Source of the DNA: Raillietiella orientalis
Taxonomy: Eukaryota
NCBI GenBank assembly: GCA_036172245.1
Contig: JAYWIR010000043.1
Location: 1,798,001-1,835,234 of the forward strand
Direction: 5' to 3'
DNA: 37,234 bases
Shown here piece by piece: positions 3,726 to 36,200 of this stretch. Each line of letters begins with the position of its first letter. Within the stretch, counting starts at the first letter, position 1. The notes beneath the pieces are model-generated. The model was not told where the DNA came from. It saw nothing but the letters and a program-made list of their open reading frames with translations, and searched no databases. A program made the position numbers and the translations under genes.

Positions 3726-3739
3726 ATTCCTTGAACCGT

Positions 3740-4322: not shown

Positions 4323-4384
4323 GCACGCTTGAGATAGTGAAAAACCCATTCACTGCTCTCCGAGTGTGAAAGTCGCAGAGAGCG

Positions 4385-9479: not shown

Positions 9480-11604
9480 GATCCGCATGCAGGCATTGCT
9501 CCAATTGCGAACGCGCTGGGAGGATGTGTGTGAACCTGAAGTTCGGAAGCCATCGCGTTGCCTTCTTGGACGCGCGCCTGGAAGAACACGACACCATGTG
9601 AGCTTGCGGGTGGTAGCGGAATGCCTGATAGGCGAAAGCGGATTTCGGTTCATTCGCGCTGGGAATTTGCGAAACCGTATACAGAGGGTAGTGGTGGGGT
9701 ATTGTCAACTTGAGACCAGCCCATGGGAATGGCGAGAGGAGATGGGAAGGTGCCGGTTGCCAACATCAACGAGCTGGCCTGCTAGATGGTGGTGCCTCCA
9801 CGGTACGCTTGCCTTCGGTTGGGCTCTGGTCGGCTGCCTCAGCTACCCTTTGGTGCAACAAGAGATCCAAGGATTGGACAACGGAGCACTCCCACGCTTA
9901 AGGAAGAGCAACTCTTTTTAATTTCAGGAAGGAAGCACGTGGGAGCATGAGGGCGCCAGAAGTCGGCCCCGCCGCAGCCGACCGCTGGCGGCAACCTCGC
10001 CGGTGTGTTCAGCACGCCGAAAGCTCCCCGCCGAAGGCTCCACTGAATGTGGTGGAGGTTGGTAGAAAGGATCGTGGGGAACTTGTCGAAACCGCCTCTG
10101 CAACATAGACATATGATGCGGTGGAGGCGCCATGCACGAAACGCATAGCTGCCGAAGGTGGGTGAGCTGCTCACTCGTATGTCGTGTGCTCATCCTGACT
10201 GCCCAGCATCGAACCAGCCTCGCAGGAGAACTGGAACGAAGAACTGTGAACGTGGGTATGCGAAGGAGGAAACGCATGGTTTTTGAAAGGCATCACTCCG
10301 AGGAGGGCGCACAGGCGAGGCTCACCTGCATCTCGCTCACCGCACCGCAGTCCGCCAGCAGCGCGCGGTAATCGAGCGGCAGCTGCTCCGCGCTGCCGTC
10401 TGGCTCTTGCGTACGAAACCTGAGGGAGCACCGTGCGACGAATTGGTGTTGTGCGGTACTCTTGGAAACCGCCAGAGGGAACCTCCGTCTTTCACCTCAC
10501 TGTGCGGAGCACCGATTGTCCTCTCACCTGCCGGGTGCATCTTGCTCGTTCTCGCTCTGTTCGACGTCACCAAGCACCTGCGCGATCTTTTGAAGCCTGA
10601 AAAAAGGTGCAGGAGGAGAGCGCAACATGGAAGGAGAGCACGCAAGAAGCGCTTGGCGACTGGACTCACCGGAGCGGGCAGACGTCGAAGAGGCGGGCCT
10701 GCGTCAGTTCGCTAGAGATCTGAAAGAAAGGGAGAGGGACCATGGAGCGGAGGAACATAAGAGAGGATACAAGAGAGGATGCGCGAGGATGGTCGGCGAA
10801 TGGATGCACACGCACAGCACCGAGGAGAGAGTGCGAGAGCGAGTGGGAAGGCGGCCGAGCTGACTGCGAGAGCTGAATAGGCGGTTTCGCTGCTACGCGA
10901 AAATCGAACCGCCACCGCGGCATTACGTGTTTAGAAGGGGCACGTTGGGCGCCCGGACGCACAGCAGGCTCGACGAACGGATGGATCGTCCTCCGGGCTT
11001 CGTTGGAAGTCCACCGTCAATTCTCTTTCTCCCAGCCGTCCATCTGCATTCTGCGATGCGGAAGAAGAATGAAAGGGATCTTCGAGTTAAGGATCGAAGA
11101 AAAAGGGAAGGCTGACGTCGTCTCCTGCCTGTCCGCCTCGTCGTGCTCCAACAGTCCGCCCATTGAGCTCGCGCTTCCTCGTCACCGCATCCTGCGACGG
11201 CACGTCCCCCGACTCGGCCTGCAGGATGTTCTGGGAAGAAGAGCGGGACGTGAAAAGCGTACATCTCTTCGCCGAGCTTTCGGCCGGGAATCAACGATCG
11301 ACGGCCTCACCAGGAAGCCGGCTTTCCTCGAGCGATGCTCATGGGCGTCCTTGGAACGTGATGGGCTGGGGTGGGCCGGAGGGACGATGGGTGTGTGACG
11401 CATCTGGCAAACGGGAGTCTTGAAGCGGCTCTTGTTGGGATGCTGCTTCTGCAAAAGAGTCCACCAAGCGGGTGGGCGTGAGAAAGTGCAAGTCGATGCC
11501 GTTTCCAGTGGCTACGCCGTGCGTGCGCGCGAGGAAACCCGCACAATCTTTCCGAGTGTGGCTCGGTACATGTGCCGCCTTTCTCACCTTCTCCTTGCTC
11601 CACG
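9480..11604 (+). mobile_element. Highly decayed Ty3/gypsy LTR retrotransposon pol remnant
   Basis: Motif remnants occur in PR-RT-RH-IN order: VNLKFGSHRVAFLD (protease-like), PTSTSWPA and ERHHSEEG (RT-like), FELRIEEKGKADVVSCLS (RNase H end-like), WASLERD and EKVQVDAVSS..TIFPSVARYMCRLSHLL (integrase-like). No LTRs were identified. Confidence 0.45.
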
Positions 11605-12094
11605 TAAGCGACTGCGGTTGGGGAAAAAACTTGAAGAAAAATAAAGAAAAATTAAAGCAAAAAGCCTTAGTTGTTTGGAGGGACTGGAAGGGATCGCTGT
11701 CCGTTTCGTGAAGCTTCCATCCTTTTCAGGATGCCGACGAGTTCCGTTTGCAGATTTCCCAGGAGGGGCCATCGGGATGCTATTCGCAGAAAGCGAGCTG
11801 CATGCTTTATGACATCACTTCTGTTAGTATCTTCGGTTTCGTCGGAACCACTGCAAGCTGCCGCAATTCCGATTACGCAGCAGAGAACTGCTATTACAGC
11901 GGCTGGCTGCAGGGCGTCCGGCACAAATAGGAGCCGAAAAACGTCCTCGGGAGGGATACCTTGTAGTTTCCCGAAGGTGATAACAAAACGTTCACAGAGG
12001 GGCCTGAGGGTAACACAGTCAAATAAAAGCTTTGGGATGGATACCCGCTCCAACACCTGACACAGTTGGTATTCACACTCTCCCGTGTCCTTCT
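11605..12094 (-). mobile_element. L1/Tx1-like ORF2 C-terminus plus part of 3' UTR (copy Z)
   Basis: TRESVNTNCVRC, then LLFDCVTLRPLCERF..PEDVFRLLFVPDALQPAA..ASRWPLLGNLQTELVGIL, homologous to 16080-16440. The 3' UTR gcgatcccttcc..ccctccaaac plus T-rich tract matches 16461-16530. Confidence 0.85.
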
Positions 12095-12500
12095 AGGGAG
12101 CGGACGTGGTTTGGCATCGCTCCACGGATTGGTTAGTGGAAAGCTTTTCGTTGGCTGTCTGGTGTGTGGGAGTACCGGTGTCCCATGGCAGAAATGCCTG
12201 AGGACACCGCGATGGAAGTTGGAGGAGGAGAAGCGACATGCTCTCCTCCACCAATGAAAGTGGGGGCATCCGCCCCCACGGAATCCGGGGCACTCGCCAC
12301 ATAGGAATCGGGGGCAACCGCCCCTTCGCGACCCTCTTCGCCATTGGCGAGGAGTTGGAGTGACGTCGTTGCTGCACCATCCCCGGCTGCAGTAGCGGAG
12401 CAGACTGCCTACAAGGACAGCGGCTACAAGCCGTCTCTGATCTATAAGGTAGGCAGTGTGTTTGATGAAAAAATTGCACGCTCCTTCGAAATGGAGCTAC
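12095..12500 (+). mobile_element. 5' UTR and start of ORF1 (copy P), 3'-deleted
   Basis: 5' motif GGAGCGGACGTG. ATG at 12185 (MAEMPEDT), then SWSDVVAAPSPAAVAEQTAYKDSGYKPSLIYKVG as in the other ORF1 copies. Confidence 0.85.
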
Positions 12501-13720
12501 CCTCTGTTTGCACAGAGGGTTCGCCTACCGCGGTCGCGACTTCGTCGTCAGCGAGGCGGGGAATATCTCCTCCGGTGGGGGTCTCGGGGACCTCCACACG
12601 CTCCAAAGCGACCGAGCATTCGGGAGCAACGCGCGGCGTTGTCTCCTATTTAAAAAAGATGTCACGGTTTCCGCTGTCGAACCTTCGGTTTTCTTGATTT
12701 TTTTCGTTTCAGGCTTTGCCTTATGCCAGCTCTCGCTCTCTCCAGCGTCGTCGGGAGTACCCTCGACCGGCGCTTGCTGCACGAGTTTGGGCTCTGGCTG
12801 TGGGTTCCGCCTCTCGGGTGCCTCCTTAGGCTTGTCCGATCTCCCCGCGCGTTTCCCTTTGGCTTTTTTCAAAGTAGGGGGAGCCGGGGTTTCGCGTTTA
12901 GGACACACCTTCCGCAGGTGGCCCTTTTCGCCGCAGTGGAAGCACTGGATGTGGGGGCACCGTTTTTTAAGGTGCCCTGTGGCATCGCAGTGTCCACAGT
13001 ACTTGGGCTTACCCACGTACCAGACGTCGACGACCTCGTTGCCGACGTCTAGTTTGTGGGGCAGCCCACCGTTTTCCTTGACGGTCACACGAGCTGCGGC
13101 CATGCCACTGAACAGTCTTCCGTAGCTTTGGAAGATGTTCGGCTTGGTCCATACCGCGTGTACCGTACCGTATTTGCTTAATTCCTCCTTCACGCCGGAT
13201 TTTGACATGCGGAGGGATACTTCCGTAAGATGCGCTACCACAGAGCGATCCTCGGTTACAGGGAAGACCTTTCTGCCTTCCAGCATGAGGGCGGTATTCA
13301 GCAGGCGTGGCGCCAGGCTTGCATCTCTGCAAGTAAGCTCCACCCGCTGGCCCCCACTGAGCAATGAAAGGCCTTCCAGGTCCTCCTCTTTGACGTCTAG
13401 CCGCTGTAATTCTCTTCCGAAATTGCGGGCGTTATTTCCAAGGAACAGGTTTCCTACCTTGTAAATCAAGGACGGCTTGTATCCTTATTCCAGGTAGGCC
13501 CGTTGTTCTGCTAAGGCTGCTGGAGATGGCGCTGCAGCCACGGAGCTCCAGGTCTTCGTGGATGGAGCAGGTGGATCCAAGGACGCGGTTGCTCCCTTTT
13601 TCAAGGAAGCGGTTGCCCTCTCCTCCGTGGGGGCGGCTGCCCCACCTCTGTGGGTTGGGGAGAGGAACCATCCTCTCCCCCGCCAACTTCCATCTCGGTG
13701 TCCTCAGGCATTTCTGCCAT
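12501..13720 (-). pseudogene. ORF1 gag-like nucleic-acid-binding protein with two CCHC zinc knuckles
   Basis: The 314-aa open segment 12525-13469 contains LSKYGTVHAVW (RRM-like) and CGHCDATGHLKKRC / CFHCGEKGHLRKVC (CX2CX4HX4C). The N-terminus is broken by a frameshift and a stop. Confidence 0.9.
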
Positions 13721-13810
13721 GGGACACCGGCGATGCACCACGCACTAACACACTAAAAAAAGGCTTCGAAAACTCGCGCGGCAGGAGCGCAGAAAAAACA
13801 CGTCCGCACG
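12501..13810 (-). mobile_element. 5' UTR and most of ORF1 (copy MA), 3'-deleted
   Basis: 5' motif GCGGACGTGTTTT at 13807-13795 and ATG at 13720. Abuts an ORF2 interior on the opposite strand at about 13811. Confidence 0.9.
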
Positions 13811-16648
13811 CTTCCTTTACGCCAGGGCGCCTCCGGAACAAGATGCCTCTCGGCGCTTGCTTCCGGACGGTGCCCCGGCAATAGGGGAGGAGGAGAAGGA
13901 AAACCTCGACGAGCCTTTCACCACCGGCGAAATTCTCGCCGGTATCAAAAGGCTAAAGAGGTGGAGAGCACCAGGGGAGGATGGCCTGCCCGCGGAGTTT
14001 TTTCAATGCTTCGCGACGGAGTTGGCACCACTGTTGCTTTAGTTGACAAGGCTTATCTGAGAGGAAGGCGATGTTCCCGACTCGTTTCGCTCAGCCAAAG
14101 TGGGGCTCCTTCCCAAGGGAGGAGACCTCAGAGAACTGAGCAACTAACGTTCGATCACCATTGTTTATACGGACGCCAAGCTGATCGCCGGACTGTTTGC
14201 GTCGCGTCTAGGACAGGTGGCAGAATCCGTAATTAGCCCGGTACAGATTTACGCTCTTCCCGCTCGAAGTATGGACGTCAACCTCTTGTTCGCGAGCACA
14301 TGGTTTTGTTGGCAGAGTAGTAAACATGATCGAGAGCGTGTAAGTGGCTGCCCCGCTATTGGGGCGCTAACTGGGCAGAAAAGGGACACCGCGACGGAGA
14401 AGGGGGTCCTAGCGATCGCGGTCGATCTGCATAAAGCGTTCGACTGCGTAAACCTGGAGCTTCTGTTGGAGCTCCTGGGTCGCTTGGGCTTCCCACCCTG
14501 CCTACTAAACTACCTGCGCTCCTGCTGGCGCAATGCTATGATCAACGTCTCTTTCAGTAGTCAACAGGTGTACGGCGTGCCGGTTCGACGGGCATCAGGC
14601 AGGGCGATAGCCTCAGTCCCCTGCTCTTCAGCGCCTACATCGAGTTGGTGCTGAGAGAATGCAAGGTGACTTTGGCTGCCTTGCCGAGCGCGTGCCCAGG
14701 TACGCCCGCCGTAGTGGCTTACGCCGATGATCTTTTGATCCTTTTGCTTATGTCCGCACCGGCTGCCGCAGTCGAGGATTCTTCGATCTGCTCATCCGCG
14801 GGACTGGACTACGGATAAAGAAGGCGAAGTCATCGGTGGTACCGGTGGGTGCGACGTGGGTCGGATGGCCTGACTGGATCCGTTTGGGGATCCCCACGGC
14901 GAGGAGCTTGAAGTACCTTGGTGTGCCGTTGGGGGACTATTCCCCTTCGGAAGCGTGGTCTGGTCGTCTCCGGAAAGTAGAGTTGGCGATCGGCTCGTTC
15001 TTGGAAGACAGGTTTCTCCTTCCGGAACGGGCCGCGGTGTGGAACGCGTTCGCGGCTCAGATCCTCCGCCCCCTGCTTTTTGTTTGCCTCGTCCCGTCGC
15101 AGTTGAAGAAACGGACGAAGGACCTCCTAAGGATCGCCCTTTGGGAAAGAGGGACGCCCCGAGTCCCGTTGATGGACTTGTCTGCTCCGCGTCGGGATGG
15201 CGGTCTCGACCTCTTGACGCTGGAGCGAGTGGAGACTCAGCTGCGATGGCGTACCCTGGCCATCGCAGCGAGGTTGTGGAGCAGCCCTTGGTGCATTCCG
15301 GCCCGCCTCCTAGCCAGCCGTGTGTCCCGCTGCGATGGACTCGCGTCCTTTCTTCTGCGCCCAGGCCAGAAGATAAGAAGATGCGGCCTGCTGCTCGGGC
15401 GCATGGCAACATTGGTCAAGGAGAACGTCTGTGTGGCATGCAGCCCCGCCAACTCCTCCGCATGGCTGGAGGAATCTGTTGGAACGTGGGCGAGGTTAAA
15501 TGCCCAAGGAGAAGAAAATTACAAGTGCCTGCGATTTTACAACCGTGCTCCATGCAGCCTGCGGACCTTCTTGCAATGCCCTGCCCGGTGCACGTGGGCA
15601 GAGACCATGGCCCTAGCTACGGCAATGCCCTTCCTGAGGAGGGCGCTCTCCAGCAGCCGCACGCCTCGGTGGCATGTCTACTGCCGAATCGCAGGCAGAG
15701 AGAAGAAGTTAAGCGGCTGGACCACGGCGCAGCTGGCCGATGCCACTACCCGAAGTGTCCTCCCGCGTGGTTTAAAGAGATGGGTCGAGCTGCTCAGCAT
15801 CCCGATAGATGAGCTGATGTGGCACCCGGATTTTATTGGATCGAGTGTCCTCCCCCTGAAGTGTCAGGAGTAGGCGCTTCTGTTGTTGCATTGGGGTCTA
15901 CCATGCAACGCGCGCCGCCACCACTGGACCAGGGGTCGAGTAGATCCTTCCTGCATCAGGTGTGGGGAGCGGGAAACCCTCTTCCACCTCCTTGTTGATT
16001 GTGCTGCCCTCCGACACCTGTGGGAACGTCTTCGTGCCTCCCTACGGATCCAGGAGGGCAGCCAGCCCAGAGACGAAGTGTAAGGCCTGAGTGTGCCAAG
16101 AGCGGGCAGCGGAAATCGTTCCCCCACCTACTCGTTGACTGTGCTGCCCTCCGACCCCTATGGGAACGGTTAGGGACGATCCTCGGGCTCCGAATGGGCA
16201 GAGCGCCTAGAGACGTTCTTCGGCCCCTCTTCGTGCGGGATGCCCTGTAGCCCGCCGCAGCCTTCGCAGCCCTTTACTGTATCCAAGGTATCGTGGCGGC
16301 CTGGAGCGATACCCGCGACGGAGGAGTAGACGCCAACTAGAAGGAAGTCATCCCGTATACTGAGCTTCATGCCAAGAGCTGCGAGATGGTCCCATCTGGG
16401 AAATATGAGGACAGACCTCGAGGGCTTCCTTCGACCGATGGGTCCTCCCCACAGCGTCCGGCGATCCCTTCCCTGCCCTCCAAACTCATTTTGTATGTTT
16501 ATCTCTTTTATTTTTCTTTTTGTTTTTCCCCCATCCCCTTTCGCTGTCGGTGAGTGCCACGTCGGGCTGCGTCCCGTTGTCCCGACAGCTCGCGTGTCCA
16601 TGGCCGTGGTGGGGCCTTGTACCACGCATTGTCAAGTTTATAAAAAAA
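13811..16648 (+). mobile_element. ORF2 RT-to-C-terminus pseudogene plus 3' UTR (copy A)
   Basis: RAPGEDGLPAEFF, VDLHKAFDCV, GIRQGDSLSP (frameshifted), YADD at 14720-14731, KYLGVPL, APRRDGGLDL, HWGLPCN..CIRC..HLLVDC. T-rich UTR and an end at TATAAAAAAA-CG. Confidence 0.92.
15938..16215 (+). repeat. Diverged tandem duplication (about 138 nt unit) of the ORF2 C-terminal finger
   Basis: HLLVDCAALRHLWERL and HLLVDCAALRPLWERL are encoded consecutively, with a junction near 16076. Confidence 0.85.
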
Positions 16649-17562
16649 CGCCTTGGGCGTAATCGCGTGGTAACGCCAATTTCGGCAGGTAGGAGTTCCA
16701 TAGGGAATTCGTCCCAAAACTCCCGGACCGAGCGCTTGAAGCGGTTTCTGTCCTGAAGCGTCTGCAAGCTGAAACCACGTATGAATCCAAGGAAATGCTC
16801 CGCGGCATCCGGAAGTTTCAGCCAGTCCCCCGTTCAACGCCACGCAGATGACGGGGGATCCCTATGGCGTGGGCGCAACTCGTGTACGATCCGGTCATGG
16901 TCCGACAGTTCCGGAGGTAACTTGCTATGCCTGCCCACGCGTGAGCATAGGTGCTGGTCAAGAAACACGTGATCTATGCTGTCGGCCATTTCCGGATCTC
17001 CCGCGAACAAGTTGCGCGTGTGCATCTCTGCGCACAGCTCGTTCACGCGGTCCCGAAGTGTGTCGGACGCACCTGACAGGAGTCGAAGGTAAAAGTCACC
17101 TGAGATTAGGTGCGCTTTGCGCACTTCCGCTTCGTCCAGATATTGGCGCCTCAGGGTAAGGAAGAAATCTCTCCATGCCTTTGCCCTTAACGCGTCGCTG
17201 CCGCTTGGAGCGTACACGTTGGTAATGGCCAGATCGATTTACGCGGACCACCTGATGGTCAACTGCCCGACGCGACCGGCACTATCGAACCGTACGCCCT
17301 TTGCCGCGGCCTCGACAGCTGGCCGAAGCCGGAACGCGACACCGCAAGATTTAACGGTGCCGCAACGCCACAGGAGCCGTCCACCCGAGATACGCTCGAT
17401 CTCCGTTGCCTGGTCTGCCGAGATCACGTGGATCTGCTACAGTAGCACCAGGTCGAACGATGCCATGGTGGAGGCCATGTCTCGTCTCTTGCCGTCGTCG
17501 CTTAGCCCGTTGACGTTCCAACAGGCAATTCGCAGACGGCGGCAAGAAGCGATTCCCGGCAT
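16649..17562 (-). pseudogene. ORF2 N-terminal AP-like endonuclease
   Basis: MPGIASCRRLRIACWNVNGL, NVYAPS, GDF, IDHVF and SDH catalytic motifs. Confidence 0.9.
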
Positions 17563-19189
17563 TAATGATGAGAACGGGTCGTTGCAGCACCTGTCAAGGG
17601 ACAGGTGGGAGAAACGAGTAAGGGGACCGCGGCCATCTCAGGCACTTGAAGCACCTGGGACACAGACTCTACCGTTTCCCTCCCTCCGTGGTCGCAGCGT
17701 AGGGTTACCTCTCGAGGAGAGTCCCCGGAGTTCCCAACTTTGTTCGCACGCTCGCTTCCTTCAATTATCACTCCCTTTTCTACGGACGGGATAATTTTGC
17801 GGGTAGCCTTCTTTGTGCGACTGGCCTTCCGGCGGGAGGCCGCAATACCGCAGGCTGTGTTTTCCGCCTCTGCGTCAGAGTTCCGAATCTCCGACTTCTT
17901 GATCGAGGTCGGACGCCTTAAGCCTTTTTCGCGGATTTAAGGGGACGCTGCAAGGACGCAGCCAGCTCCTCCGCCGCTCGCTCAAAGGCGACGTCGTCGA
18001 GCATGCGTTCGACGACGGACGCCACCGCCGGGTCGATATGCTCCGGCATTAATTTGCCGGAGGGCTGAGAGTCGGCAGAGACGAGTGCAATTTTGCCGCT
18101 CTGTTCGACCTCAGGAATGCACTTTCAGACGACGGAGCAGCGTTTGATTTTTTCGCGACGCGGCAAATTCTCGCTGCGTTTCGCGACATTCTTTTGATTT
18201 TGATCTTTGAGGTTTTTCTGCCTCTTGGATTTTACTGACTGCCATCCAGGTTCCTGGCCGTCCTCCTCGAACTTGTCCGCGTTTTTCGACAAGATCTCTG
18301 AGCTGACGTTTTCCTGGGGCACGATAGCTTTAGCGGCGGCTCTCTCTCGGGCTACTAGAACTCTTTTTTTTTTTGGCCGCGCCCTTCTTCGCATTCCTTG
18401 CGGACGCGACGCGGACTTCATTTTGCGGGCACACCGGAAGAGTGTGCCCGGGTTGCTGCATTGCTTGCACTGCAAGTGGAGGCAGTTTTTTCTCAGGTGA
18501 CCTGAAGTGCTGCAATGCCCGCAGAAATGCGGCTTACCAATATACTAGATGTCAACGGGCTCGCCGTTGACCTCCAGCTTGTTTGGTAAGGAGCAACCCT
18601 CGCGGACCGTGATTTGCGCGGAATCCAGACCGCAATTGAGAAGATCATATTCCCAAAACGGAATTGGCTTTTTTCACAGCGCGTGCACCGTGCCAAATTT
18701 CAACAATTTCTTTTGGACAGCCTCTTTGGCCCTCCGGAAGGTGATTCCGAGGAGGTGGATCACGATGGATCTATCCTCCGTGATGAAGAGGAGCCGGCGA
18801 TTACCCAAAGGAACAGGTGTACGGAGCAGACGTTGGGCAACACTTGCTTTTTTGCAAATCACTTCCACGTACTGTCTACGGCTCCTGATGGTCATCGCAA
18901 AGAGCTCCTCCTGTGGAACTTTGAGGGAGTGCATCGCTTTCGATAAAGCGCGTGCACTCTCGAAGGAGTAGAGATTGCCTACCTTATAGAGTAGCCTTGG
19001 ATTGTACCCCTTTTCCAAGTAGGCCTTTAATTCGGCCGCAGCCGCCGGCGATGGCGCTGCAGCCACGGAACTCCAGCTTCTCCCTGACGAGGGAGTCGCT
19101 TCTGTGGGGGCGCTTGCCCCAACATCCATTGATTCAGGGGGCGACATAGACGCCGCCCCCTCCTTATCACTGGCGGTGGTCCCAGGCAT
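17562..19189 (-). pseudogene. ORF1 (gag-like, CCHC knuckles), frameshifted
   Basis: MPGTT..SWSSVAAAPSPAAAAELKAYLEKGYNPRLLYKVG..KFGTVHAL and QCKQCSNPGH-type knuckle. Ends at the TAA of TAATG. Confidence 0.85.
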
Positions 19190-19287
19190 TGCGGCCTAGC
19201 CACCACCAAATCCACTAGCACACCAGAAAAAAAAGAAAAATGAAACCACAAACGCTCGGGAGCGAAACAAACACCCGTCCGCTCTCG

Positions 19288-22200
19288 TTCGCGGACTGAG
19301 ACAATCTGAAAAGATCGGTCCGCGAGTTTTGCTGCCGTTTTCCCTTGCACCAGTTTATGCGCGGGTTCAAAGAGGGTGTAGCCAACAGCAGAGATCTTCT
19401 GCCGCCCCGCTTTTACTCCGGGCGCGCAGACGTTAGTTGATTATCCGAGTACAATGCCAAGGCCGAGCGCCAGGTCTGGCAGTCAGGGGCGACAGTTCTG
19501 CTCGACGACCAGGACCGGGAATGCTCGGCTCCAGCCGACGTGCGACGGATAGTCAGGCGCTATTACTCATCTCTGTATGCAGAGGCACCGACGGAAAGCA
19601 GTCTATCCGAGCTGCACCTGCCGATTGATGCACCTGTTGTAAACGAGGAAGAACGCGCGCGTCTTGATGAGCCCTTCACGGCCGAGGAAATTTCTTCGGC
19701 CATCTCGGGACTCAAGAGACGAAAAGCGCCAGGCGAGGATGGACTCTTCGCGGAATTATTTCAGTGCTGTGCGCAAAGCTCATCGCCCTGGTGCTCCAAC
19801 TTTCGTCGCTGATGCGAGACGCGGGCGATGTCCTCGTCTCGTTTCGCTCAGCGAAGATGCGTCTCCTGCCGAAAGCGGATATTTGCGCCAACTGAACAAT
19901 TGGCGTCCGATCACATTAGTTAATTCGGACGCTAAGTTTTTCTTGAAACTTCGGGTGACGCGGATGGGTAGGATCGCCGAATCCTTGGTAAGTCCGGAGC
20001 AGACCCACGGTGTTCCTGAGCGGTCTATGGACGCGAACCTCTTGTTCTTCGGAACATGGCTGCAATTGCAGCATTGCGTGGCAATGGATTGTCGTGAGGT
20101 AGCGACGGCTTCGATATCTCACCGAAATAATCGCGGGCTGCAAAGGGGAACCCCGGGAGCCTTGGCGGTTGCAGTCGATTTGCAAAAAGCTTTCGATTGC
20201 GTGAGCGAAAAGCGTTTTCTTGAGCTCTTGGAAAGTCTGAGTCTCCCGGCATCCCTGTTAACGTACTTGCGCTCCTGCTGGCGCCACGCGATTACATTCA
20301 TTGTTTTCAGTGGCTGTCGCTTGTACGGCGTGCCGGTACGGCGAGGAATTAGGCAGGGCGATAGCTTAGCCCGCTGCTCTTAAGCATCTATTTTGAATTT
20401 GTGCTGGAGGCTTACAGACTGACGCTAGCCAACCTGCCGAGCTTCTGTCCAGGTACGCCGTCCGTGGCAGCGTATGCCGTCGTCCTGCTTCTTCTGTTGC
20501 CCATGTCCACCCCGGCGGCGTCGCTTGAAGATTTCTTTGAGTTGATCCGTCGCGGTGCGGTCGTGAGCGTCAACAGGAGAAAGTGCATGGTTATTCTAGT
20601 GGGAGCGACGTTGGAGAGGCAGTCCGACTGCATCCTTCTAAGGATCCCCACTAGCAGGTACCTGAGGTATCTTGGCGGGCCGTTGGGCGACTTCTGCATC
20701 TCAGAAGCGTGGTCGGACTGCTTTCGGAAGGCAGAGCGTGCACTTGACCCGTTCTCAGGAGGCGAGTTCGTCCTACCGGAAAGGGCCGGCATCTGGAACA
20801 CCTTCGTTGCCCCCTTTCTTCGCCCCCTGTTTTTTGTTTGTCCACCCCCCAGGAAGTCAAAGTCTGGGCACAGCGCCTTCTACGCAAAGCGTTGTGGGGC
20901 GCTGCAAGATCCCGCGTGAGGCTTAAAGACTTGGTGGCGCCGCGTCAGGATGCAGGCTTGGGCATCCTAGACTTAAAAAGTATGGAGCTGCAGGTGCAGT
21001 TTTGAATGCTGCGGCTCTGTGCCAAGCTGTGGTGTACGCCGTGGTGCTTACCCGCACGCCTTATACTAAGGCGCTGCACGGGAAGCGAGGGACTGCTTTC
21101 GTTGCTGCCCCACATTCGGCACACCAGAATAGGGTTTGGCTTCCCGCTGAGGCAGCTGTCCTCACTGCTGGAAGCCCAATGTTGCATCTCCTGCCGCCAC
21201 TAGAACCTGAAAGCTTGGCGGCAGGAATCTTTTTCATCGTGGGCTGCTTCCAAAGGAACGCGTTTGGAAGATCTTCGACGCCTGCGACTTCTCCTCAGTC
21301 ATCCAATGGACGAAGTCATGCGGCACAAGAAGAAGTCGGATCATCTGGCCACCACACCACTCGCCGCAGCGCTGTCTGCCCTCAGGGCAAGCAACGACAG
21401 TTGCCTACCGGCGAAATGGGAGTTCTCCTGTTAAATAGCGGCAGTCAGTAAGCTCCTCGGCTGCTGGACGACAAAGGAACTGGTGGAGACTGCCACTCCT
21501 CCTAATCGGGAGAAGGGGCTGCTTCGGTAAGCTGAGCATTTAAGTGTGCCCCCCGGAGCGATAGTGGTTCCCCCCGTTGGTTTGGACAAGTCCGTGTTCC
21601 CCTTTAAGTGGAAACAAGATGTGCTGCTCTTTTTACACTGGGGCTTCCACTGTAATCGGCAGCGAAGCATCGTTTCCGGGGGAGCTGCTTCGCCAAACTG
21701 TTTGAGGTGCGGTGAGATCGAGTCTTTTCCGCACCTCTTGCTGGACTGCGGTGACCTCCGTGAACTGTGGCGAAGGCTGATTTCAGCCATCCTGCCGCAG
21801 AAAGGCACTGCCATTGATGTGCTGCGGCGCTTCTTCAGCAGGATTGGATTTTCGGTTGGCGCGATTGTCGCAACCATGTGTTGCATTCGCGCCATCGTGA
21901 AGGCCCGCTACGCCCTGGAGTTGTCAGCGCAGCAAAGGGAGGCTCACCGGTTTGCATCAAAATCTATGGAAAAGGCTGCTTCGTGGCTTCATCTTCGTGC
22001 CAAGGTGAAAGAGGACATCGCCGGCATTCATCGCCGGTTTCCAGACTTTTAAAAACGGCTTAATCCGATGATCACTATGTCCTGAAGCCTATCCATACCC
22101 CTTCCTTGCTCGCTTATCTAAACTTCCGGTGCCATTACTTTTATCCCTGTGCGAACCAGAGCGATCCCAAAGACCCTTGTCCCGGCGTCTTCCATTGATT

Positions 22201-22375
22201 TCTTTTTCTTTTGTTCTTGTTTGTTTGTGTTCCCAGTTACCACACGCCGCTCTGTGTTATTCTGGCCTGCGTGCCAGCAATTTTCTCTTGTTCCTTCTTC
22301 AGTCGTCCGTTGGAAGCATGGTTCCCAGCTGGTTTATTTTATATAATTGTTTTTGTTTATGTTATATGAAATAAA
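19288..22375 (+). mobile_element. ORF2 linker-RT-finger pseudogene plus 3' UTR (copy Q)
   Basis: LKRSVREF, KAPGEDGL, NNWRPITLVNSDAK, VDLQKAFDCV, GIRQGDSL, YAVV (mutated YADD), HWGFHCN..CLRC..HLLLDC, stop at 22050-22052. T-rich UTR and AATAAA at 22370-22375. Confidence 0.92.
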
Positions 22376-23158
22376 CGTATTCGCGTGACCGGGTGAAAAA
22401 TCTCCTGCGCTTGTTTTGCAGAGATCAAATGGATCTTTTGCAGCAGCGCAAGGTCGAACGATTCTAGAATGGCGGCCATATCTGTTCTCCTGCTGGCGTC
22501 TGTGATGCCGTTTACATTCCATACGGCGATGTGCAAACGACGGCGCGAGGAGATTCCCGGCATTACTGCCGGGAAGATGACGGTGTGGGGGAACCCGCCT
22601 CGGAAGAGGCGGGTGAGATGACCATTAGGGTTTCGGCCTCCTTAGGCACCTGCAGTACCATTCAGGCGTCCACCCCTCCATCTCCTTCGTGTCTGTGCGT
22701 GGTGTTCTCTCGGGTGACGATTCGCGGGATTCTCCCACGCTCATGGCACTCTCGCAGTCGGAAGTCATCTCCACGCCTTCGGCCTGGAGAGGGGCTTTCC
22801 GGGGTTTGCTGGACTTCCTTCCAGCCTTCCGGCGGGGTGCCGCGGAGATGGAAACTTGGTTTCCGGCATGCGCTTCGGTGTCGGAAGTTACCGACTCCTC
22901 GGTGGAGGCCGGACGCCTCACTGCCTTTTTGCCAGCCTTGGAGGGGTCTAGCTGTAACGATGCAGGCTGCTAGTCCGCCACACGCTCGAAGGCGGCGTCT
23001 TCGATCACGGTCTCGATGACGGACGCTTCCGCCGGTTCGCTCCCCACGCTGTTGACATTTTCAACAAAGGATTGCTCATCGGAAGCTGCGAGTTCTACCT
23101 TGCTAAAAAGAAAGGAACAAGAACGCGTTCGACGGGAACGCGTTCGACGATGACGCTG
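22376..23158 (-). mobile_element. Copy D, distal part: ORF1 C-terminus and start of ORF2 endonuclease
   Basis: ASVIETVIEDAAFERVAD is homologous to ORF1 of copy MB. TAATG is followed by MPGISSRRRLHIAVWNVNGI. It reads on from 28796-30000 across the TSD (FKKCSV/IVERVP). Confidence 0.88.
23147..23158 (+). repeat. Left target-site duplication of copy C (ACGATGACGCTG)
   Basis: Identical 12-mer at 28796-28807 directly after the 3' end of copy C. Confidence 0.9.
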
Positions 23159-23241
23159 GACGGAAGTGTTCTGTGTTGCTCCTCGAGCGCGATTCCTTTC
23201 CAACTTCTTTGTGTGCGGTGTGCCCGAGTGCGTTCACTAGG

Positions 23242-25182
23242 ATGTCCACGGAGACCGTGCAGCAGAAGATGGATGTAGGGGCTCCTGCAGGCAATAAAGA
23301 CTCCACTCCGGATGCCCGGTCCGCCTCTGATTCTTGTGTCTCGCCACCGGCGAGAAGCTTCGTCGTCGTCGTCAATGCGGGGGCAGCCAGCGGAGCACCG
23401 TCCGACGAAGCGGAGCTGCAGGCATATGCAGCCCATGGCCACAAGCCTGCTCTCTGCTTTCCGGTTAGTGCTGCTATCTCCGACGGGGTCGGAGATATTC
23501 TGTGAGATGAGCTTTTGCACGTCAGAGTCCGGCAGGACGACCTCCTGACCATCTTGCCGGTTAACGCGCTCGTACAATGGAAGGTGCCCTGCAAAGAAAC
23601 ATCCCTAGTCCAGCGCCTTCTCCGCACCCCGCTTAACATACGCGAGAAGGCGGTCGTCCCTTCGGCCATGGACCAAGCGTTCGTGGTCCGATTCTTCGCC
23701 GTCCAGGTGGACACGCCCGATCGCGTGCTCGTCGCTGCTCTTAGTGCATTCGCCACGGTGCACGCGCTGTAGAGAGCAGACAATCCGATCAAAAGGATTG
23801 CATCTCTTTACAGCGGACTTGCCATGGCGCGTGTCACCATGGCGGATAGGAGGCAAATGCCTCCGCACTTGTAGGTGGGCGATGCGATCGTCCACCTTAA
23901 ATTTGCCGGTCAGCGACCGGCTTGCGGCATTTGCGGTGCAGAGGGCCACCGTCCGTGGAAGTGCCCTTCTCGAACTGCCGCTATTGTAAACAGCTTGGCC
24001 ACTCCATTAAAGAGTGCGCCGAGCTGAAGATAAAACGGCAGGCGAAAAGCCGCCAGCAATCGACCCCGTCCGCGCCGAAAAGCTCCCCCGTTTTGCCACG
24101 GGAGAAATCGGGCGCAAAGGGCGGGTCTTCATCGAGTGGCGGTCCCGCGAAAAAGGGCGGGGTTGCTCCTGGGAAGCCACCATCCCAGACAGCTGCGCAG
24201 ACGGGAAAGAAGCTACGTCGCCCTGGGGGCAAATCGCCCCCTTCGAAGCAGCCCAAGAGTGCTGACACGCACTTAAGAAAGGCTGCTGGACTGCCTGCGT
24301 TCGTTTCCGGGTCTAGCGGAACACCCGCGGAACCGTGCGAGGGCACGCCAGGGACTGCCTCTGAATGGCCGTCCTTCTCAAAGGCCGCGGAGAGCACGCC
24401 TACCTCGGCGAAGGCACAGGTAGCGAAGGCTGCAATAGCGCATGGCGCGACGGCGGCAATAACCTCCGTTTCACCAGTACCGGCGAAGAAGCAGGTGCAG
24501 CGCGTAACGGGGACGAAGCCATCTCCCGTCGCGAGCGCGCAACCTGCGCCGGCATCTCCGGACAAACAATTCAGGGAGGTGTCGGCATCCAGGAGGGCAT
24601 CCCTGACGCGGGCTGGACTCGCGTCTCCAGTGCGCCCACAAAGGGGAAGAAGAAGGTTGACCCTTCAATATTCCCATCCTTAAGGTAGGTGGGAGACAGA
24701 AGCGAAGCACTCCGAAGAAGGTGCGTACCCAGGTACGCACTACGGTTGCGTACTCTGTCTCTGTCGCTTCGCGCGAAAGGGAGGCTGTAAAAGCCAAAGC
24801 TCCAGAAGCTGCGTTGGCGACTGCGGCAACTCCCGCGCGGGCAGGGCAAGCCTCCACCTGCCGAAACAAAAAGAGACTGGCAAAACGCCAGTCTCGTGCC
24901 AGGCACTAGGACTTCGAGGTGGATTGCGAGTGCTAACAAATGGAGTGCGCATCCCGAGGTAAACCGGTAGCGCGCCGGGCTAAAGTGTGAAAGCACGAGC
25001 CTGTTGCCGGAGGCGGTTCCGGCTCCTGCACGTAGCCCGTGGCGCTGATCCTCGGCTCCCAGGACTAGTCTGGGTGCGATGTGGCGGCGAACGGGAGCGA
25101 TTCCGTTTCCCAATCCGCTCTCCTACCAGCTGACTTCTCGTCGGACTGGGCGAGGAGCACGCCGTCATGTCCGCAGCAGTAA
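23242..25182 (+). pseudogene. ORF1 of copy C (CCHC knuckles, Pro/Ala/Lys-rich C-terminal region)
   Basis: MSTETVQQKMDVGAP..AELQAYAAHGHKPAL, LSAFATVHAL, CGICGAEGH and CRYCKQLGHSIKEC. Several stops and frameshifts. Confidence 0.85.
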
Positions 25183-28100
25183 TGCGTGGACTGGCGTCCG
25201 CTCGTCGCGTCAGCGTGGCCTGTTGGAACGTCAACGGGCTGCGTGATGCTGACAAAAGGCTGACGGTAGCCAAAGCTTTGCGTGCGTTCGAACTGGTGAT
25301 GCTGCAGGAGATACATAGCATCTCCGAACGCTCTCAAGTGGTCCGAATCGATTGACCTGGTCGTTACGAACATCAATGCGCCGAGCGGCGGCCGGCATTA
25401 CGCCCAGCGACTCGCATTCCTGGGTGGCCTGCGAAGCCGCTGGCTCGCCGACTCCGGCCCCAACGTGGCGCACCTCCTTGCAGGAGACTTCAACGTCCAC
25501 CTGCTAACAGTGGAAAGATGCCGCTTGAGAGAGAAGCAACTGGTGAGCGAGGTATGCGCGTCCGTGCGCGTGCAAAACTCGCTTGCTGGTGAGCCCGAGA
25601 TGGAGAGATCGCCGGACCATGCGTTCCTCGAAGAACACCTGCTCTCACGAGTAAGTCGGAGAGGGCGCCTGCTGTCGGAGATTTCGGATCATCTGAGACT
25701 GGATTTCGAGCTCCTCCCGCCTGGCAAAGTGCCTCCGATGAATGTCTGGAGGTTGTCGGCCGACTGGCTTAGCAATTCGGAGGCGGGGGAGCATCTTCGC
25801 CAGCACCTCCGGGGCTTCGTCATCCGTGAACTCGAGGACTGGAACGATCTGAAAAGATCGGTCCGCGAGTTCTGCTTCCGGTTTCCCTTGCACCTGCTTC
25901 CACGCGGCTTTGGGGAGGGTGTCGCGTAGAGCAGATCTTTCTGCAGGCGCGTACCTTCTCCCGATGCCCGGACGTCCGGCGTCTGGCGGTGTACAAGGCC
26001 AGGGCCGAGCGCCAGGTTTGTCAGTCTGAAGCAGCTTATCTGCTCGATGACGTTGGCCACGTATGCTCGGCTGCATCCGACGTACACCGCGTTGTAAATC
26101 GCTACTACTCCTCGTCGTACGCAAAGCAGCCCACGGAACGCAGTCTCTTTTAGAAGCTTCTTACGACGGGTAGCCCTGCAATCGACGAGGAGGAACGCGC
26201 CAGACTGGATTGGACCTTCACGGCGGGAGAAGTATCTTCCGCCGTAGCGGGCCTGAAGAGGCCTGAGGCGCCTGGGAAGGATGGCCTGCCCGCGGAGTTC
26301 TTTCAGTGCTTCGCAGAGGAGCTCGTCCACCAGGTGCTGAGCCTTTATGCGCTGATGCGGCAAAAGGGGGATGTTCCCGCTTCTTTCCGCTCACAAAAGG
26401 TGCGGCTCCTGACGGAAGGCGGGTATTTGTGCCACCTCAACAACTGGCGTTCGATCACCTAAGTGAATTCGGACGTCAAGTTGTTCTCCAAACATTGGGT
26501 CGAGAGGCTGGGGAGAATCGCAGAGTCCTTGATAAGTCCGGAGCAGACGTATGATGTTCCCGGGAGGTCCATGGACGCGAATCTTTTCTTCGCACGAACA
26601 TGGTTTGATTTGCAGCAGTGCATTTTGCAGCGGAGCCAGGCAGCCGAAATTGTTGCTGCCAAGGGCAAGCGGCGGTGTTCAAGGCACGAAGGAACGCCGG
26701 TGGCCTTAGCGGTCAACGTCGATCTCCACAAAGCGCTCGACAGCGTGAACCAGGACCTCCTTCTGGAGCTTCTGGGACGCCTAGGCCTCCCGACGCAACT
26801 CATCGCCTACTTGCGCTCCTCCTGGCGCCACGCGTTAAGCTGTATGTCTTTCAGCGGGAACCCCGTGTGTAGCGTTCCCATACGGCAGGGTATCAGGCAG
26901 GAGACAGCTTAAGCTGCCTGCTCTTCAGCATCTTCTTTGAGTTGGTGATGAGGGCGTACAGGCTGACGCTGGCCAACGTGCCGATCTCCTGTCCGGGAAC
27001 TCCGGCCGTGGCCGCCTATGCTGACGACCCTTTCCTGCTGCTGCCTATGTACACCCCGGCGTCCAGGCTCGAGGACTTCTTCGAGCTCATTCGTCGGGGA
27101 GCAAGCCTGAGCGTCAACAGGAGGAAATCAACCGTTGCACCGGTTAGCTCTACGTGAGAGGGGCAGTCCAACTGGATCCGCCTAGGGATCCCACGGGCAG
27201 GTGCTTTAAGTACCTTGGCGTTCCGTTGGGCGCCTTCTGTCCATCAGAAGTGTGGTCGGACTTCCTTCACAAGGCCTAGACCGCTGTGGGCCCGTTCCAA
27301 GGCGGCAGGTTCCTCCTGTCGGAACGGGCCTTCGTGTGGAACATTTTCCTTGCCCCTCTGCTCCGTCCACTCTTATTTGTTTGCCCCTCTCCCTACTCGG
27401 CTAAGCGTCGGGCGCAACGCCTGTTGCGAAACGCCTTGTGAGGACCGGCGAGGTACAGGTTACACCTGAAGGAATTGACGGCTCCTCGGCGGGATGCAGG
27501 ATTGGGCATCCTGACGCTGGAGCGCATCGGAAGGCTAGTGCAGTTCCGCAAGTTGGCCCTTTGCCCCCAGCTTTGGACTACTCCCTGGTGCTCTCCAGCT
27601 CGGTTGCCGCTGCGGCGCTGCACGGGTGACGACGGACTGCTTTCGTTGCACCTGCGCACGGAGTTCGCCCAGTGAGGATTCGGCTTACCACTGAAGCAGC
27701 TCTGCTCGCTTCTGGGAAAGCATACGTGGATCTCCTGCCGGACGACGAACTTCAAATCCTGAAGGCAGGAAGCCTTATCGTCCTGGGCAGCGCAACAGGA
27801 TGTGTCCTGTTTCGAACACCGTTGCGCGAATCTTTCCCCACTCAGTACATTGGGGGAGGTGCTTGAAGACCAGGACCAGTGGACGTGACCAGCCGCTACG
27901 CCACTCGCCGAAGCACTTTCTGCACTGATGGTGCGAGACGACAGTGACCTACCGGCGAGGTGTGAGGTCGCTTGCGAAATCGCAGGCGATACCCTACTGC
28001 TGTGCTGCTGGAGGGTTTGCGAGCTGGCAGACACTGCCATCCCTCGCTTTCGTGCCAAGGGACTTCTCCATTGGAGCGAGCTCCTTGGGGTTCTTACCGA

Positions 28101-28590
28101 AGAACTTGTGGTCTCTTCTGCGTGCTTGTACGCGACTGTGTTCCCCTTTCGATGGAAACAGGAAGCTTTTCTGCTGGTGCATTGGGATCTTTACTGCAAC
28201 CAGCGCGCGCACCTGGTTTCCTGGGGAGTTACGTCCCCGAACTGTGCAACATGTGGAGCGGTGAAATCGCTTCCGCATTTGCTATTTGAATGCGCTGCCC
28301 TCCAGGAGCTGTGGCGGTGGCTGTCTTCAGCGCTCCTGCACCCCGGACACACCGCAAAAGACTGGATGCGCCGCTTCTTCACGCGTGGTGGTCTTCTTCT
28401 TAGAGCGGTCGTAGCAATCGTTTGCTGCGTCCGCGCCATTGTCAGAGCCTGCCAAGTATTGCAGATGCGAGCGGTCCCAACATCGGTCCCCAACACTGTA
28501 GCCTGCAACCTGCAAATGGCTGCCGGGTGACCACATCTTGGAGCAGAAGTGAGGAAGGAGATCTGCAGCATTCACCTCCGGTTCTGAGAA
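25182..28590 (+). pseudogene. ORF2 of copy C: APE endonuclease, reverse transcriptase, C-terminal finger
   Basis: VACWNVNGL, LQE, GDFN, SDH, RAPGKDGLPAEFF, DLHKALDSV, GIRQ, YADD at 27017-27028, HWDLYCN..CATC..HLLFEC. Confidence 0.92.
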
Positions 28591-28735
28591 TAGGAACGGC
28601 AAAACTGCATTCTCCTGTCCCCGCCTTTCCTGCAATTTATTTATTTATTGTTCCCCCCTCTTGTCCCGTTCTGAACCCTCATTGTGCCCGGGCTGCGTGC
28701 TGGGAACCCCACTCCCCATCTACTGTTCCCCTTAC

Positions 28736-28754
28736 CTGGGAACACAGTTCCCAG
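28736..28754 (+). other. 3' UTR stem-loop CTGGGAAC-ACA-GTTCCCAG
   Basis: Perfect 8-bp inverted repeat 36 nt before the terminal AATAAA. Counterparts at 791-805 (minus strand) and 22310-22328. Confidence 0.65.
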
Positions 28755-28795
28755 AAGATATTATTAATAAATGTCCCGGAGCAACCGTGTAATAA

Positions 28796-28807
28796 ACGAT
28801 GACGCTG
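28796..28807 (+). repeat. Right target-site duplication of copy C (ACGATGACGCTG)
   Basis: Identical to 23147-23158. Confidence 0.9.
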
Positions 28808-30000
28808 CATTTTTTGAAATTGTCGCTAACCTGCTGCTTTTTTTTTTGGTAGGTGAGCTTTTTTTAAATTCGTCGTTTTTTCTTCGACTTTCACTTTTTC
28901 GCTGTTGCTTCTTGCCATTCAGGCACCTGATTGCTTTCGTCGATCTTTTCGGCATTCGTTGCCGGGGTGTCGGCTGCGGCCTGGGCCATGGGCGTGGGTG
29001 GCACTGCTTGAGCGGCAGCCTTCGCCGCCAGCCTTTTCTGTAGCAGCCGGGCGCGTTTGTTTAGGTTGCTCGCGGAAACCACGCGCACAGCGGATTGTGG
29101 TCACACTTCCCTCGTGTGGCCCATTGTCCCGCATACCTGGCACTGTACGTTGGGGCACCTCCTTTTGAGGTGTCCCGACGTGTTGCAGAAGCCACAGTAT
29201 TTGGGCTTCCCCACGTACCAGAGGTCGACGATTTCTCCGCCGACCACCAGTTTCTGGGGAAAGGTAGAGCCCTCCCGGACGGTTACACATGCAGCCGTGA
29301 GGCCACATTGAACTGTAGTATAGTCCTTGAAAGAACTAGGCTTGGTCCACACTGCATGGACCGTGCCTTCTTGTGTCAACGCGGCACGTAGTTGTTCTTT
29401 CCGCATCCGCGCGGTTACTCCTAAAAGGTGGACCACCATACTGTGGTCCGCCGTAATGGGAAGTAGCCTGAGTATCCCCATCACCACGGGGATTTTGAGG
29501 AGACGTTAGGCCAGATCTGCGTGTTTGCAGATCACCTCAAAGTACTTCCCCTCGCTACGAATACTCATAGCGCAGAGCTCCTCCTCTTTAACATCGAAAG
29601 CGCGCATCCCCTTCGAAAACACGCGCGCACTCTCAGAAGAATACAAATTGCCAACCTTTTAGAAAAGCAATGGGTGATACCCCTCTTCCACATAGGCAGA
29701 TAATTCCGCCGCGGCTGCAGATGGTGGCGCCGACACGACGGCGCTTTACGCCCGCGCTGCAGCGGGGACCGGTTGTGTGGGGGTGGATGCTTCCACCTCC
29801 TTCGCCACTGAAGGCGGCGTTGCCGCCGCCACCTGGCACTCCATTCTCTCAGGAGGCGACGTTGTCGCCGCCCCCTGACGCGCACTGGTGGTCGTGTCAA
29901 GCATTGCTGCCTGATCGACCACCACCACACACGAAGCCCACACTTAGGGACGGTTCCTGGTACGAAAAGCACTGAGGAAACACGTCCGCTCAAACCGGCG
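28796..30000 (-). mobile_element. Copy D, proximal part: 5' UTR and ORF1 N-terminal portion
   Basis: 5' motif GAGCGGACGTGTTT at 29991-29978 and ATG at 29904. EGTVHAVWTKP..WYVGKPKYCGFCNTSGHLKRRCPNVQCQVCGTMGH. Confidence 0.9.
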
Positions 30001-30632
30001 TAAAGCACTCGACAGCGTCGACCAGAAGCTCCTGCTGGAGCTTCTGGAACGCTTGGGGTACGCAGGCTTCAATTTTGTCCTATCTGTACTCCAGCTGGCG
30101 CAACGCGTTAATCAGTCCTTCTTTCAGCAGGCAGACCGTGAATGGCGTGCCGGTGCGACGCGGCATACGGCAGGGAGGCAGCCTGAGCCCCCTGCTCTTT
30201 AGCGTCTTTTTCGAATTGGCTCTGAGAGCGTACAGGGAAACTCTGGCGCACCTGCCGCGCGATTGTCCCGGTACGCCTGCGGTTTCAGAGTACGCGGACG
30301 GCCTTCTGCTGCTGCTCCCTATGTTCACCCCGGCTTCGGCGGTCGAGGAGTTCTTCGACCTGCTGCATCGGGGAACCGAACTTACGGTGAACAGGGAGAA
30401 GTCGTCCGTAATGCCAGTTGGTGTGGCGTGGGCAGGGCAGCAGGACTGGTTCCGTTTGATGATCCCCACGGTGAGGTGCTTAAAGTACCTTCGTGTGCCG
30501 TTGGGGGACTACTCCCATGCGGAAGCTTGGTCCGGCTGCCTCCAGAAAGCAGAGACGGCGATAGGCCCGTTCCGAGGCGGCAGGTTTCTCCTGCCTGAAC
30601 GGGCCGCGGTTTGGAACACGTTCTTTCTTTGC
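30001..30632 (+). mobile_element. RT core fragment (copy R), truncated on both sides
   Basis: KALDSVDQKLLLELL..GVPVRRGIRQGGSLSPLLF..YADG..KYLRVPLGDY..PERAAVWNTF, followed by an abrupt change to AT-rich sequence. Confidence 0.9.
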
Positions 30633-35400: not shown

Positions 35401-36200
35401 CGAAAACGATCCTGAGGAACAGCGTACACGAAAACTTGACGACAAGTGGAGGCAGATCTGCTGCAGTATCGCAAGGCGGACAATGCTGTTGGTTGTTTGC
35501 TTGTAGTGTCAGCTGCCTGACGCTTCCAATCCCACTGCTGAGCCTGGAGGAGATATTTGCAAGACCGATTCACCTAGGAACCTCATTGACTGAAGTGGAG
35601 ATGCCCGTAGATACTTTAGATAGCCTCGGGTGCTTCCCGTTGAGTGGCACGACTCGGCTCCGTGATCCCGCAAGGCACCATGCCATGCCACACACGCTTC
35701 CATCAGTGGTGCAGAAAGACCAGCATTCCAGATCGTGCCAGATTTGATTAAGGGCTGCTGCTGCTGCGGATGCTCTGAGGTGTTTCGTTGTGCCAGAAAT
35801 TTTTGTGTCTCCGCCGGCTCTTCCGCAATCGCAAAGTGTCTTGCGTGCGGGAAGAGTGCGAGATGCACAGCTGCTGTGTGAGAGACAAGATCGTCAGCAG
35901 CTGCGCGTCTCCGCGTTTTCACTCGCATGAGCGCGGCGCCTTATCAGACACCCAGGAAGCCGAGACTCGGTGGCGGCACCGAAAGACGCCAAGGATGCGG
36001 TGGTGTGACGAATCCGTCGCCTTCCCTTCACGTTTGTGTGGAGTCTCCGGGATACCGGCGCACCACCCCACTTCATCCTGAGGTCTGCCATGAAAATGTT
36101 CAAACCGTGGGGGCCATCATGCTTTGTTGCCCTTTCCTCTCCACCAGGAAAAACCTTCTTCTTCCTCATATCAACGGGCTCTTACCTAACGCATTCAAGC
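32500..36200 (+). mobile_element. Very old LINE of a different clade (jockey/I/CR1-like), heavily decayed
   Basis: Remnants occur in the expected order: knuckle-like Cys/His traces (about 32640-32810), ESFLE..IPNY (APE-like, about 33225-33295), NWRSHKARNSYKRVVRTTRR (EN-RT linker), SVIPQGT (GVPQG-like, about 35658) and AADAL (YADD-like, about 35765). Boundaries are approximate. Confidence 0.45.

Follow-up and report, generated by a model that had tools for sequence, protein, structure and literature searches.

How does a cluster of long interspersed nuclear elements (LINEs) come to be built of segments that alternate strictly in orientation, with every insertion antisense to the relative that hosts it? 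The question is raised by a stretch of 37,234 nucleotides from Raillietiella orientalis (positions 1,798,001 to 1,835,234 of contig JAYWIR010000043.1, GenBank assembly GCA_036172245.1), referred to here as the window, in which one LINE family occupies two blocks (1-3850 and approximately 11581-30632). The ten segments that make up the larger block have the orientations - + - + - + - + - +. This strict alternation had been described in an earlier note on the same DNA and was borne out by BLASTN comparison of the window with itself, by TBLASTX comparison with a full-length copy and by TBLASTN searches with P0001, a database fragment of a reverse transcriptase (RT). We attach about even confidence to the explanation that the cluster arose by repeated retrotransposition of diverged lineages into resident copies, and that the antisense bias is genuine and originates in the integration machinery. 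With few independent events, the all-antisense pattern is striking but statistically fragile, and we regard it as suggestive.

Two of the nested insertions are flanked by target-site duplications (TSDs) on both sides, and both are antisense to their hosts. The first is that of the full-length copy A (plus strand) into the minus-strand copy Z (segments are listed in Table 1). Twelve identical bases, ACGATGACGCTG, flank A, and 13 of 14 match when the comparison is carried past one mismatch; the same scoring of 1000 random position pairs gave at most 10 matches, and that in only 2 pairs. Z is a single element split by A, its two parts being colinear with successive stretches of another minus-strand copy, Q, and a contig from a related public sequencing run (X1) joins position 23103 to 28796 without A. 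The second case lies outside the region flagged in the earlier note. Here the 5'-truncated element L2 (minus strand) splits the plus-strand copy H, with the duplication GA[A/T]GCATTCGA matching at 10 of 11 positions, and the two parts of H are contiguous in element coordinates, position 729 matching 20198 and position 2332 matching 20189.

The L2 duplication falls in an RT motif read as (K/E)AFD, and the same codons are found at a second junction. At 30000 the native 5' end of Z meets P, an RT fragment whose first bases, AAAGCACTCGA, lie no more than 1 nt from where the right TSD copy begins in H. This KAFD site (717-727 and 2329-2339 in H, 30001-30012 in P) has been used twice in the same orientation by different guests, one of them full length (Z) and the other 5'-truncated (L2), in two hosts that are only 59% identical. 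The chance of such a coincidence is roughly 3/5600 per pair, or about 0.01 when 21 pairs are allowed for, and the coincidence supports the view that Z genuinely inserted into P at 30000. The shared site argues for recognition of the target sequence. According to the earlier note the insertion sites are scattered over many positions of the element, which describes the remaining five or six (at the ORF1/ORF2 junction between the two open reading frames (ORFs), the start and the end of the apurinic/apyrimidinic endonuclease (APE) domain, the start of the RT domain and the zinc finger) but not the two events that share the KAFD box. At both TSD-defined sites TCGA adjoins the first nick, and 5.5% of the cluster positions have a TCGA that close. 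The pre-insertion site in H, GCATTCGAGTGC, is a near-perfect 12-bp palindrome centred on TCGA.

We also examined the element ends at all other junctions. There are five native 5' ends (12095, 13812, 19288, 23158 and 30000), and all five of these putative ends carry the family's 5' motif, in full (GAGCGGACG) in four of them, while the fifth, that of copy A, has GGACGG. All four 3' ends (16642-16674, 22369-22400, 28765-28796 and, on the minus strand, 728-759) have AATAAA and, after it, about 25 nt of conserved tail. In A and L2 the TSD defines where the tail stops, and host homology starts directly after the other two tails. The family 3' end is not poly(A): the tail consensus is roughly CGYC..GG.CG.AA.CG.GTG..AA and ends in 2-5 A. 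All of the eight proposed junctions between a native end and the interior of a relative on the opposite strand were recovered, six of them at the positions given previously, whereas those placed at 16649 and 22376 had to be moved by about 25 nt, to about 16674 and 22400, because the elements end in the conserved tail after AATAAA. In agreement with these limits, the minus-strand copy Q matches A up to position 25925 of A, which corresponds to window position 16675, and Z matches the Q protein up to the codons at 22399-22404.

At each junction the partner with a native end was taken to be the guest. On that reading P (plus) hosts Z (minus), Z hosts both A and the plus-strand copy MB, and MB hosts Q (minus); Q in turn hosts D (plus), D hosts C (minus), and the 5' end of D lies in R (minus). 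L2 in H forms a separate small nest at 1-3850. The host and guest pairs named in the earlier note are on opposite strands throughout, as it claimed, but host and guest appear to be reversed in four of the pairs if its labels run from left to right. The antisense orientation of all seven relations in the flagged region was confirmed. With L2 in H included, eight of eight relations are between opposite strands, or seven of seven if the two ends of D represent one event. No same-strand nested insertion or coordinate jump was seen in the long segments, all of which are colinear with the full-length copy.

Table 1. Segments of the LINE family in the two blocks of the window. Copy A served as the coordinate ruler.
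Segment	Content	Positions	Strand	Evidence and remarks
R (segment 1)	Zinc-finger and 3' region	11581-12094	-	BLASTN; left limit uncertain (11581-11605); 11598-12079 aligns to 16554-16077, minus strand, 64% identity, E 2e-44
D, 5' part (segment 2)	Native 5' end (filler TAGG, then GAGCGGACG), 5' untranslated region (5'UTR), start of ORF1	12095-12500	+	
C (segment 3)	5'UTR and ORF1 (CCHC knuckle); native 5' end at 13812; 3' part missing	12501-13812	-	
D, 3' part (segment 4)	RT to native 3' end	13813-16674	+	TBLASTN with P0001 (13815-15534); RVT_1 match; tail alignment
Q (segment 5)	5'UTR, ORF1, APE; native 5' end at 19288; cut at APE end by the D 3' end	16675-19288	-	
MB (segment 6)	APE end, RT, zinc finger, native 3' end	19289-22400	+	BLASTN; 19289-22039 aligns to A 25832-28583 at 66.5% identity
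Z, part 1 (segment 7)	ORF2/APE start and inter-ORF region; TSD copy 23148-23157	22401-23157	-	Colinear with Q 17399-18035; translation
A (segment 8)	Full-length element of 5639 bp with ORF1, APE, RT and zinc finger; TSD CGATGACGCT	23158-28796	+	
Z, part 2 (segment 9)	TSD copy 28797-28806, ORF1, 5'UTR, native 5' end at 30000	28797-30000	-	Colinear with Q 18128-19161
P (segment 10)	RT fragment from the KAFD codons (AAAGCACTCGA); cut at 30632 against AT-rich non-LINE DNA	30001-30632	+	
H, left part	Resident LINE copy hosting L2, with RT as far as the KAFD box; its left end probably lies outside the window	1-727	+	TBLASTN with P0001 (155-553); BLASTN, 353-729 to 19830-20198; TSD copy GAAGCATTCGA at 717-727
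L2	5'-truncated guest LINE in H; native 3' end (AATAAA and 25-nt tail) at 728	728-2328	-	2320-1221 aligns to 14896-16028; 8 filler bases at 2321-2328
H, right part	TSD copy GATGCATTCGA, then RT resumes at the same codons	2329-3850	+	Cut about 470 bp short of the native 3' end; last homology 3737-3847

Several points weigh against an intrinsic orientation rule. Both flanks and a TSD are present in only 2 of the 8 relations, and the priming (3') junction in a relative is kept in 4 of the 8 (A, L2, D and MB), so that four of four antisense corresponds to a p value of 1/16 only. The pattern was singled out only once it had been noticed, in a scan that covered very many windows, and the one unbiased trial is L2 in H, the sole relation from outside the flagged region. 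The probability of 1/128 given in the earlier note is weakened, since it assumes seven independent and unselected events while the pattern was chosen post hoc and the two ends of one element may have been counted twice. The seven insertion events of that note stand as seven opposite-strand relations that need not be independent, and only one of the seven in the region (23158-28796) has both flanks and a TSD. We found no convincing nick motif common to all junctions. Every copy is decayed, with 0-7 stop codons and 0-4 frameshifts per RT region, and none is young. Large parts are missing: P, Z and MB have no left half, about 2.3 kb of Q/R is gone beside the intact 5' end of D, some 2.5 kb of D is missing, and so are the 3' 4.3 kb of C. 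The missing parts mean that the history needs at least three deletions. Finally, human L1, discussed below, shows that the composition of endonuclease sites can by itself produce an orientation bias.

These points lend themselves to the view that the nest is real but follows no rule, a handful of insertions having been antisense by chance and the window having been noticed for that reason. The small number of complete relations, the p value from the priming junctions and the post hoc selection from a very large scan, of which only L2 in H is independent, all speak for it. Against it stand eight opposite-strand relations with no same-strand relation, and a KAFD site that was used twice in the same orientation, and we consider it rather doubtful. 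If the bias were only chance, the locus would be an ordinary decayed LINE nest.

The arrangement of the native 5' ends bears on a different possibility, namely that some or all of the -/+ pairs (12501-16674, 16675-22400 and 22401-30632) are single insertions with a 5' inversion, which would reduce the number of orientation choices. Twin priming of L1 yields a 3' arm in sense orientation preceded by a 5' arm that is inverted, and the local layout is similar here: an antisense arm with a native 5' end stands directly to the left of a 5'-truncated sense arm with a native 3' end at 13812, 19288 and 30000, and the mirrored arrangement is seen at 12094. In the pair at 16675-22400 the break points nearly coincide, leaving 94 bp in both arms, and no deletion would be needed for the missing partners. 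However, the 94-bp overlap between the arms of this pair (16675-19288 and 19289-22400) is only about 60-68% identical (36 of 53 positions in a local alignment), whereas over its first 60 bases the plus arm and A agree at about 85% of positions, as counted on the printed alignment. So divergent an overlap indicates that the arms come from different lineages and not from one RNA. The break points coincide in only one of four pairs and differ by 1.4 to more than 4 kb in the other three, and the coincidence of the junction at 30000 with a proven integration site would be left unexplained. There is also no TSD for any pair: a 12-mer (11 of 12 matching) flanking 16670-22375 was rejected as such, being part of the conserved 3' tail, and none of the other pair-flanking repeats exceeded the random-pair null. 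We therefore regard twin priming as improbable.

The first 60 bp or so of MB (19289-19350) are about 85% identical to A 25832-25893, as against 66.5% for the alignment as a whole. This locally conserved stretch lies at the APE/RT linker, with the insertion site of Q in MB on one side and that of D in Q on the other.

A nest built by sense insertions, with antisense elements targeted to the junctions between them, was also considered and rejected, as the flanks of 19289-22400 share only TCTC.T and those of 13813-16674 share nothing.

We prefer an explanation in which nicking of the resident sense strand is directed by sequence or by the state of the resident copy. Diverged lineages of the family would have retrotransposed repeatedly into resident relatives, the events with a single preserved junction being ordinary insertions, and the integration machinery would pick the sense strand of the resident copy for the first nick. 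The repeated use of one site, the RT KAFD box, makes it probable that sequence features of the family guide this strand choice. The cue could alternatively be transcription or open chromatin of the resident copy, and nicking directed in this manner would account, in addition, for the tendency of each newcomer to insert into the one before it. A stronger proposal is that the family homes to itself, always makes the first nick in the sense strand of the host, has a hotspot in the KAFD box and inserts antisense in every nested case, producing a self-inactivating cluster rich in inverted repeats, while the landing of newcomers in previous newcomers would point to targeting of transcribed or open copies. 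We advance this proposal only tentatively.

The earlier note had also suggested self-homing with priming from the host sense strand, for example by means of element RNA that pairs with relatives and displaces this strand, which is then nicked and primes. The nicked strand is indeed the host sense strand in all four preserved priming junctions, and the recurrent site lies in RT codons common to all four intact copies. The hybrid itself is less easily accommodated: at 56-80% identity between hosts and guests extended hybrids are unlikely to form, even the KAFD box is only some 75-80% conserved over 30 nt (estimated by eye), and there is no microhomology between the 3' tails and the primer ends. 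We consider homing through such hybrids distinctly improbable and retain directed nicking of the sense strand as the preferred reading.

The nest survives as its right half only. H and P are truncated, at 3850 and 30632, against non-LINE DNA, and the left halves of the nest would have been removed by deletions. Two of the deletions end at native element termini and so probably arose during integration; target-site deletions mediated by L1 are known. A 9/10 repeat, TCCTTCTAGG and TGCTTCTAGG, is found at 12088-12097, across the D 5' junction, and at 30630-30639, at the right edge of the cluster; it was taken as chance, since about 1.2 such matches are expected among 133 pairs.

That deletions have clearly shaped the cluster, as seen from the missing left halves and the cut ends at 3850 and 30632, could suggest that sense insertions were once present and were lost by recombination between direct repeats, as the earlier note offered as an alternative, or that the array is misassembled. 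Among the public sequencing runs, one holds related sequence (8% of sampled words), and it did not confirm the junctions of the window. Its contigs are mostly less than 90% alike (182 of 320), and they are for this reason taken to derive from related copies rather than from the window locus; they include no empty sites except that of A, and a contig of run X1 continues from 12500, the left edge of C. On the other hand, copies that are 56-80% identical are a poor substrate for homologous recombination, which makes the loss of sense insertions by this route unlikely, and the junctions are located at native termini with TSDs, 5' motifs and tails, not inside shared sequence where assemblers switch. 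Taken together, we find recombination or misassembly very improbable as the source of the pattern.

The family has an ORF1 with a CCHC knuckle, followed by a putative APE, RT and a putative C-terminal zinc finger. A Pfam search of 127 ORFs from the main block identified RVT_1 in four plus-strand ORFs (E 8e-7 to 8.5e-5), one of which, in P, reaches the cut-off (29.7 versus 29.6 bits). In a protein search P0001 was a 54% identical relative, and all others were at most 29% identical. TBLASTN with P0001 gave matches on the plus strand at 13815-15534, 19498-21245, 26040-27804, 30057-30623, 2332-2928 and 155-553, and on the minus strand at 2288-1671. All were significant except that at 155-553, and the strongest four (13815-15534, 19498-21245, 26040-27804 and 30057-30623) had E values of 2e-77 or lower. 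These matches identify an RT domain, as expected of an APE-type LINE of the L1/Tx1 superfamily. For the endonuclease, Exo_endo_phos was found in one plus-strand ORF below the Pfam cut-off (17.4 versus 24.5 bits), and residues 4-155 of P0012 matched 17535-17041 on the minus strand (TBLASTN, E 3.8e-7). Similarly, zf-RVT matched two plus-strand ORFs at 24.7 and 19.7 bits (E 3.7e-5 and 1.3e-3), below the cut-off of 27.5. The ORF1 knuckle was recognized as zf-CCHC (PF00098) with 23.8 bits against a cut-off of 20.8 in 12528-13484 (minus strand), with weaker matches at 29104-29505 (minus strand) and 23901-24680 (plus strand). TSDs of 10-12 bp flank A and L2, and L2 is 5'-truncated, as is typical for LINEs. 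An Atlas row named TX1 scored 0.88, which is rated as a lead only. A metagenome scan with P0001 gave 7 loci, none of them usable, as the sole locus above 35% identity (61%) spans 28 residues.

At the nucleotide level the copies are 56-80% identical to each other in the BLASTN self-comparison. Copy A has 7 stop codons and 2 frameshifts in 1.8 kb, and the RT region at 13815-15534 has 3 and 2, respectively. The presence of such lesions in all copies indicates that they are old copies of diverged lineages. Neither the stop codons and frameshifts nor CpG depletion (observed/expected ratio of 0.78-1.11 everywhere) had the power to order the elements by age.

Two copies contain tandem repeats. The zinc-finger region of D carries a tandem duplication of about 119 bp (15957-16075 and 16097-16215, 70.6% identical, period of about 140), and the minus-strand fragment R aligns to both of its copies. 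In Z, a tandem repeat of GAACGCGTTCGACG occupies 23118-23157, directly before the insertion site of A.

No homology to the family was detected in 3851-11580 or in 30633-37234, which amount to 14 kb of other DNA. In these segments there was no Pfam match in 99 ORFs, no Rfam match, and no long terminal repeats or terminal inverted repeats. The flanking DNA is without long repeats except for a 76-bp palindrome at 8919-8994, and the G+C content falls to 38% at 31-32 kb.

LINE clusters that nest within themselves mark the centromeres of several green algae, and we know of no account of how such elements find their own copies. One of these elements, Zepp, has a poly(A) tail, unlike the family described here, which ends in AATAAA and a 25-nt tail with no long poly(A). 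In the sources consulted, Zepp and Zepp-like (ZeppL) elements are described as L1 LINEs of green algae that target themselves and form nested GC-rich clusters (PMC3446292, PMC8226300, PMC9940879), with cluster sizes of 1.5-42.3 kb and G+C contents of 61% versus 53% (PMC3446292). The cluster in the window is similar in that LINEs have inserted into their own resident copies, all eight relations being with relatives, and have formed a localized nest of tens of kilobases with a G+C content above that of the surroundings. However, PMC8226300, on the authority of Higashiyama 1997, portrays Zepp clusters as tandem arrays that consist mainly of 3' ends, whereas here the strands alternate strictly and five native 5' ends are present. 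The literature searched contained no statement on antisense-only nesting; its passages on Zepp, which come from outside the primary Zepp papers, are silent on orientation.

A second comparison is with the site-specific LINEs of the Tx1/L1 superfamily, such as Tx1L in Tx1D, which insert into another repeat at a defined site and in a fixed orientation. The family in the window resembles Tx1 elements in its RT and CCHC-containing ORF1, in its putative APE and C-terminal zinc finger, and in the KAFD box that was used twice in the same orientation. It differs from them in that the other five or six sites vary in position and in that the target is the family itself.

Nesting of L1 in L1 in the human genome has been reported to favour the sense orientation about 2.2-fold, with 21,559 sense and 9,899 antisense insertions (Levy, Schwartz and Ast 2010, PMC2836564, Table 3), and the orientation bias of nested L1 and Alu elements is attributed there to intrinsic features of the target sequence (PMC2836564). 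The bias in the window is in the opposite direction, antisense, and is so far complete (n = 7-8). If it is true, an obligate strand rule combined with a recurrent target in the RT domain would provide a handle on the targeting step, with sequence, transcription or structure as the cue, and would explain the many inverted repeats in such clusters. While self-nesting of LINEs is already known from Zepp, strict antisense nesting would be new.

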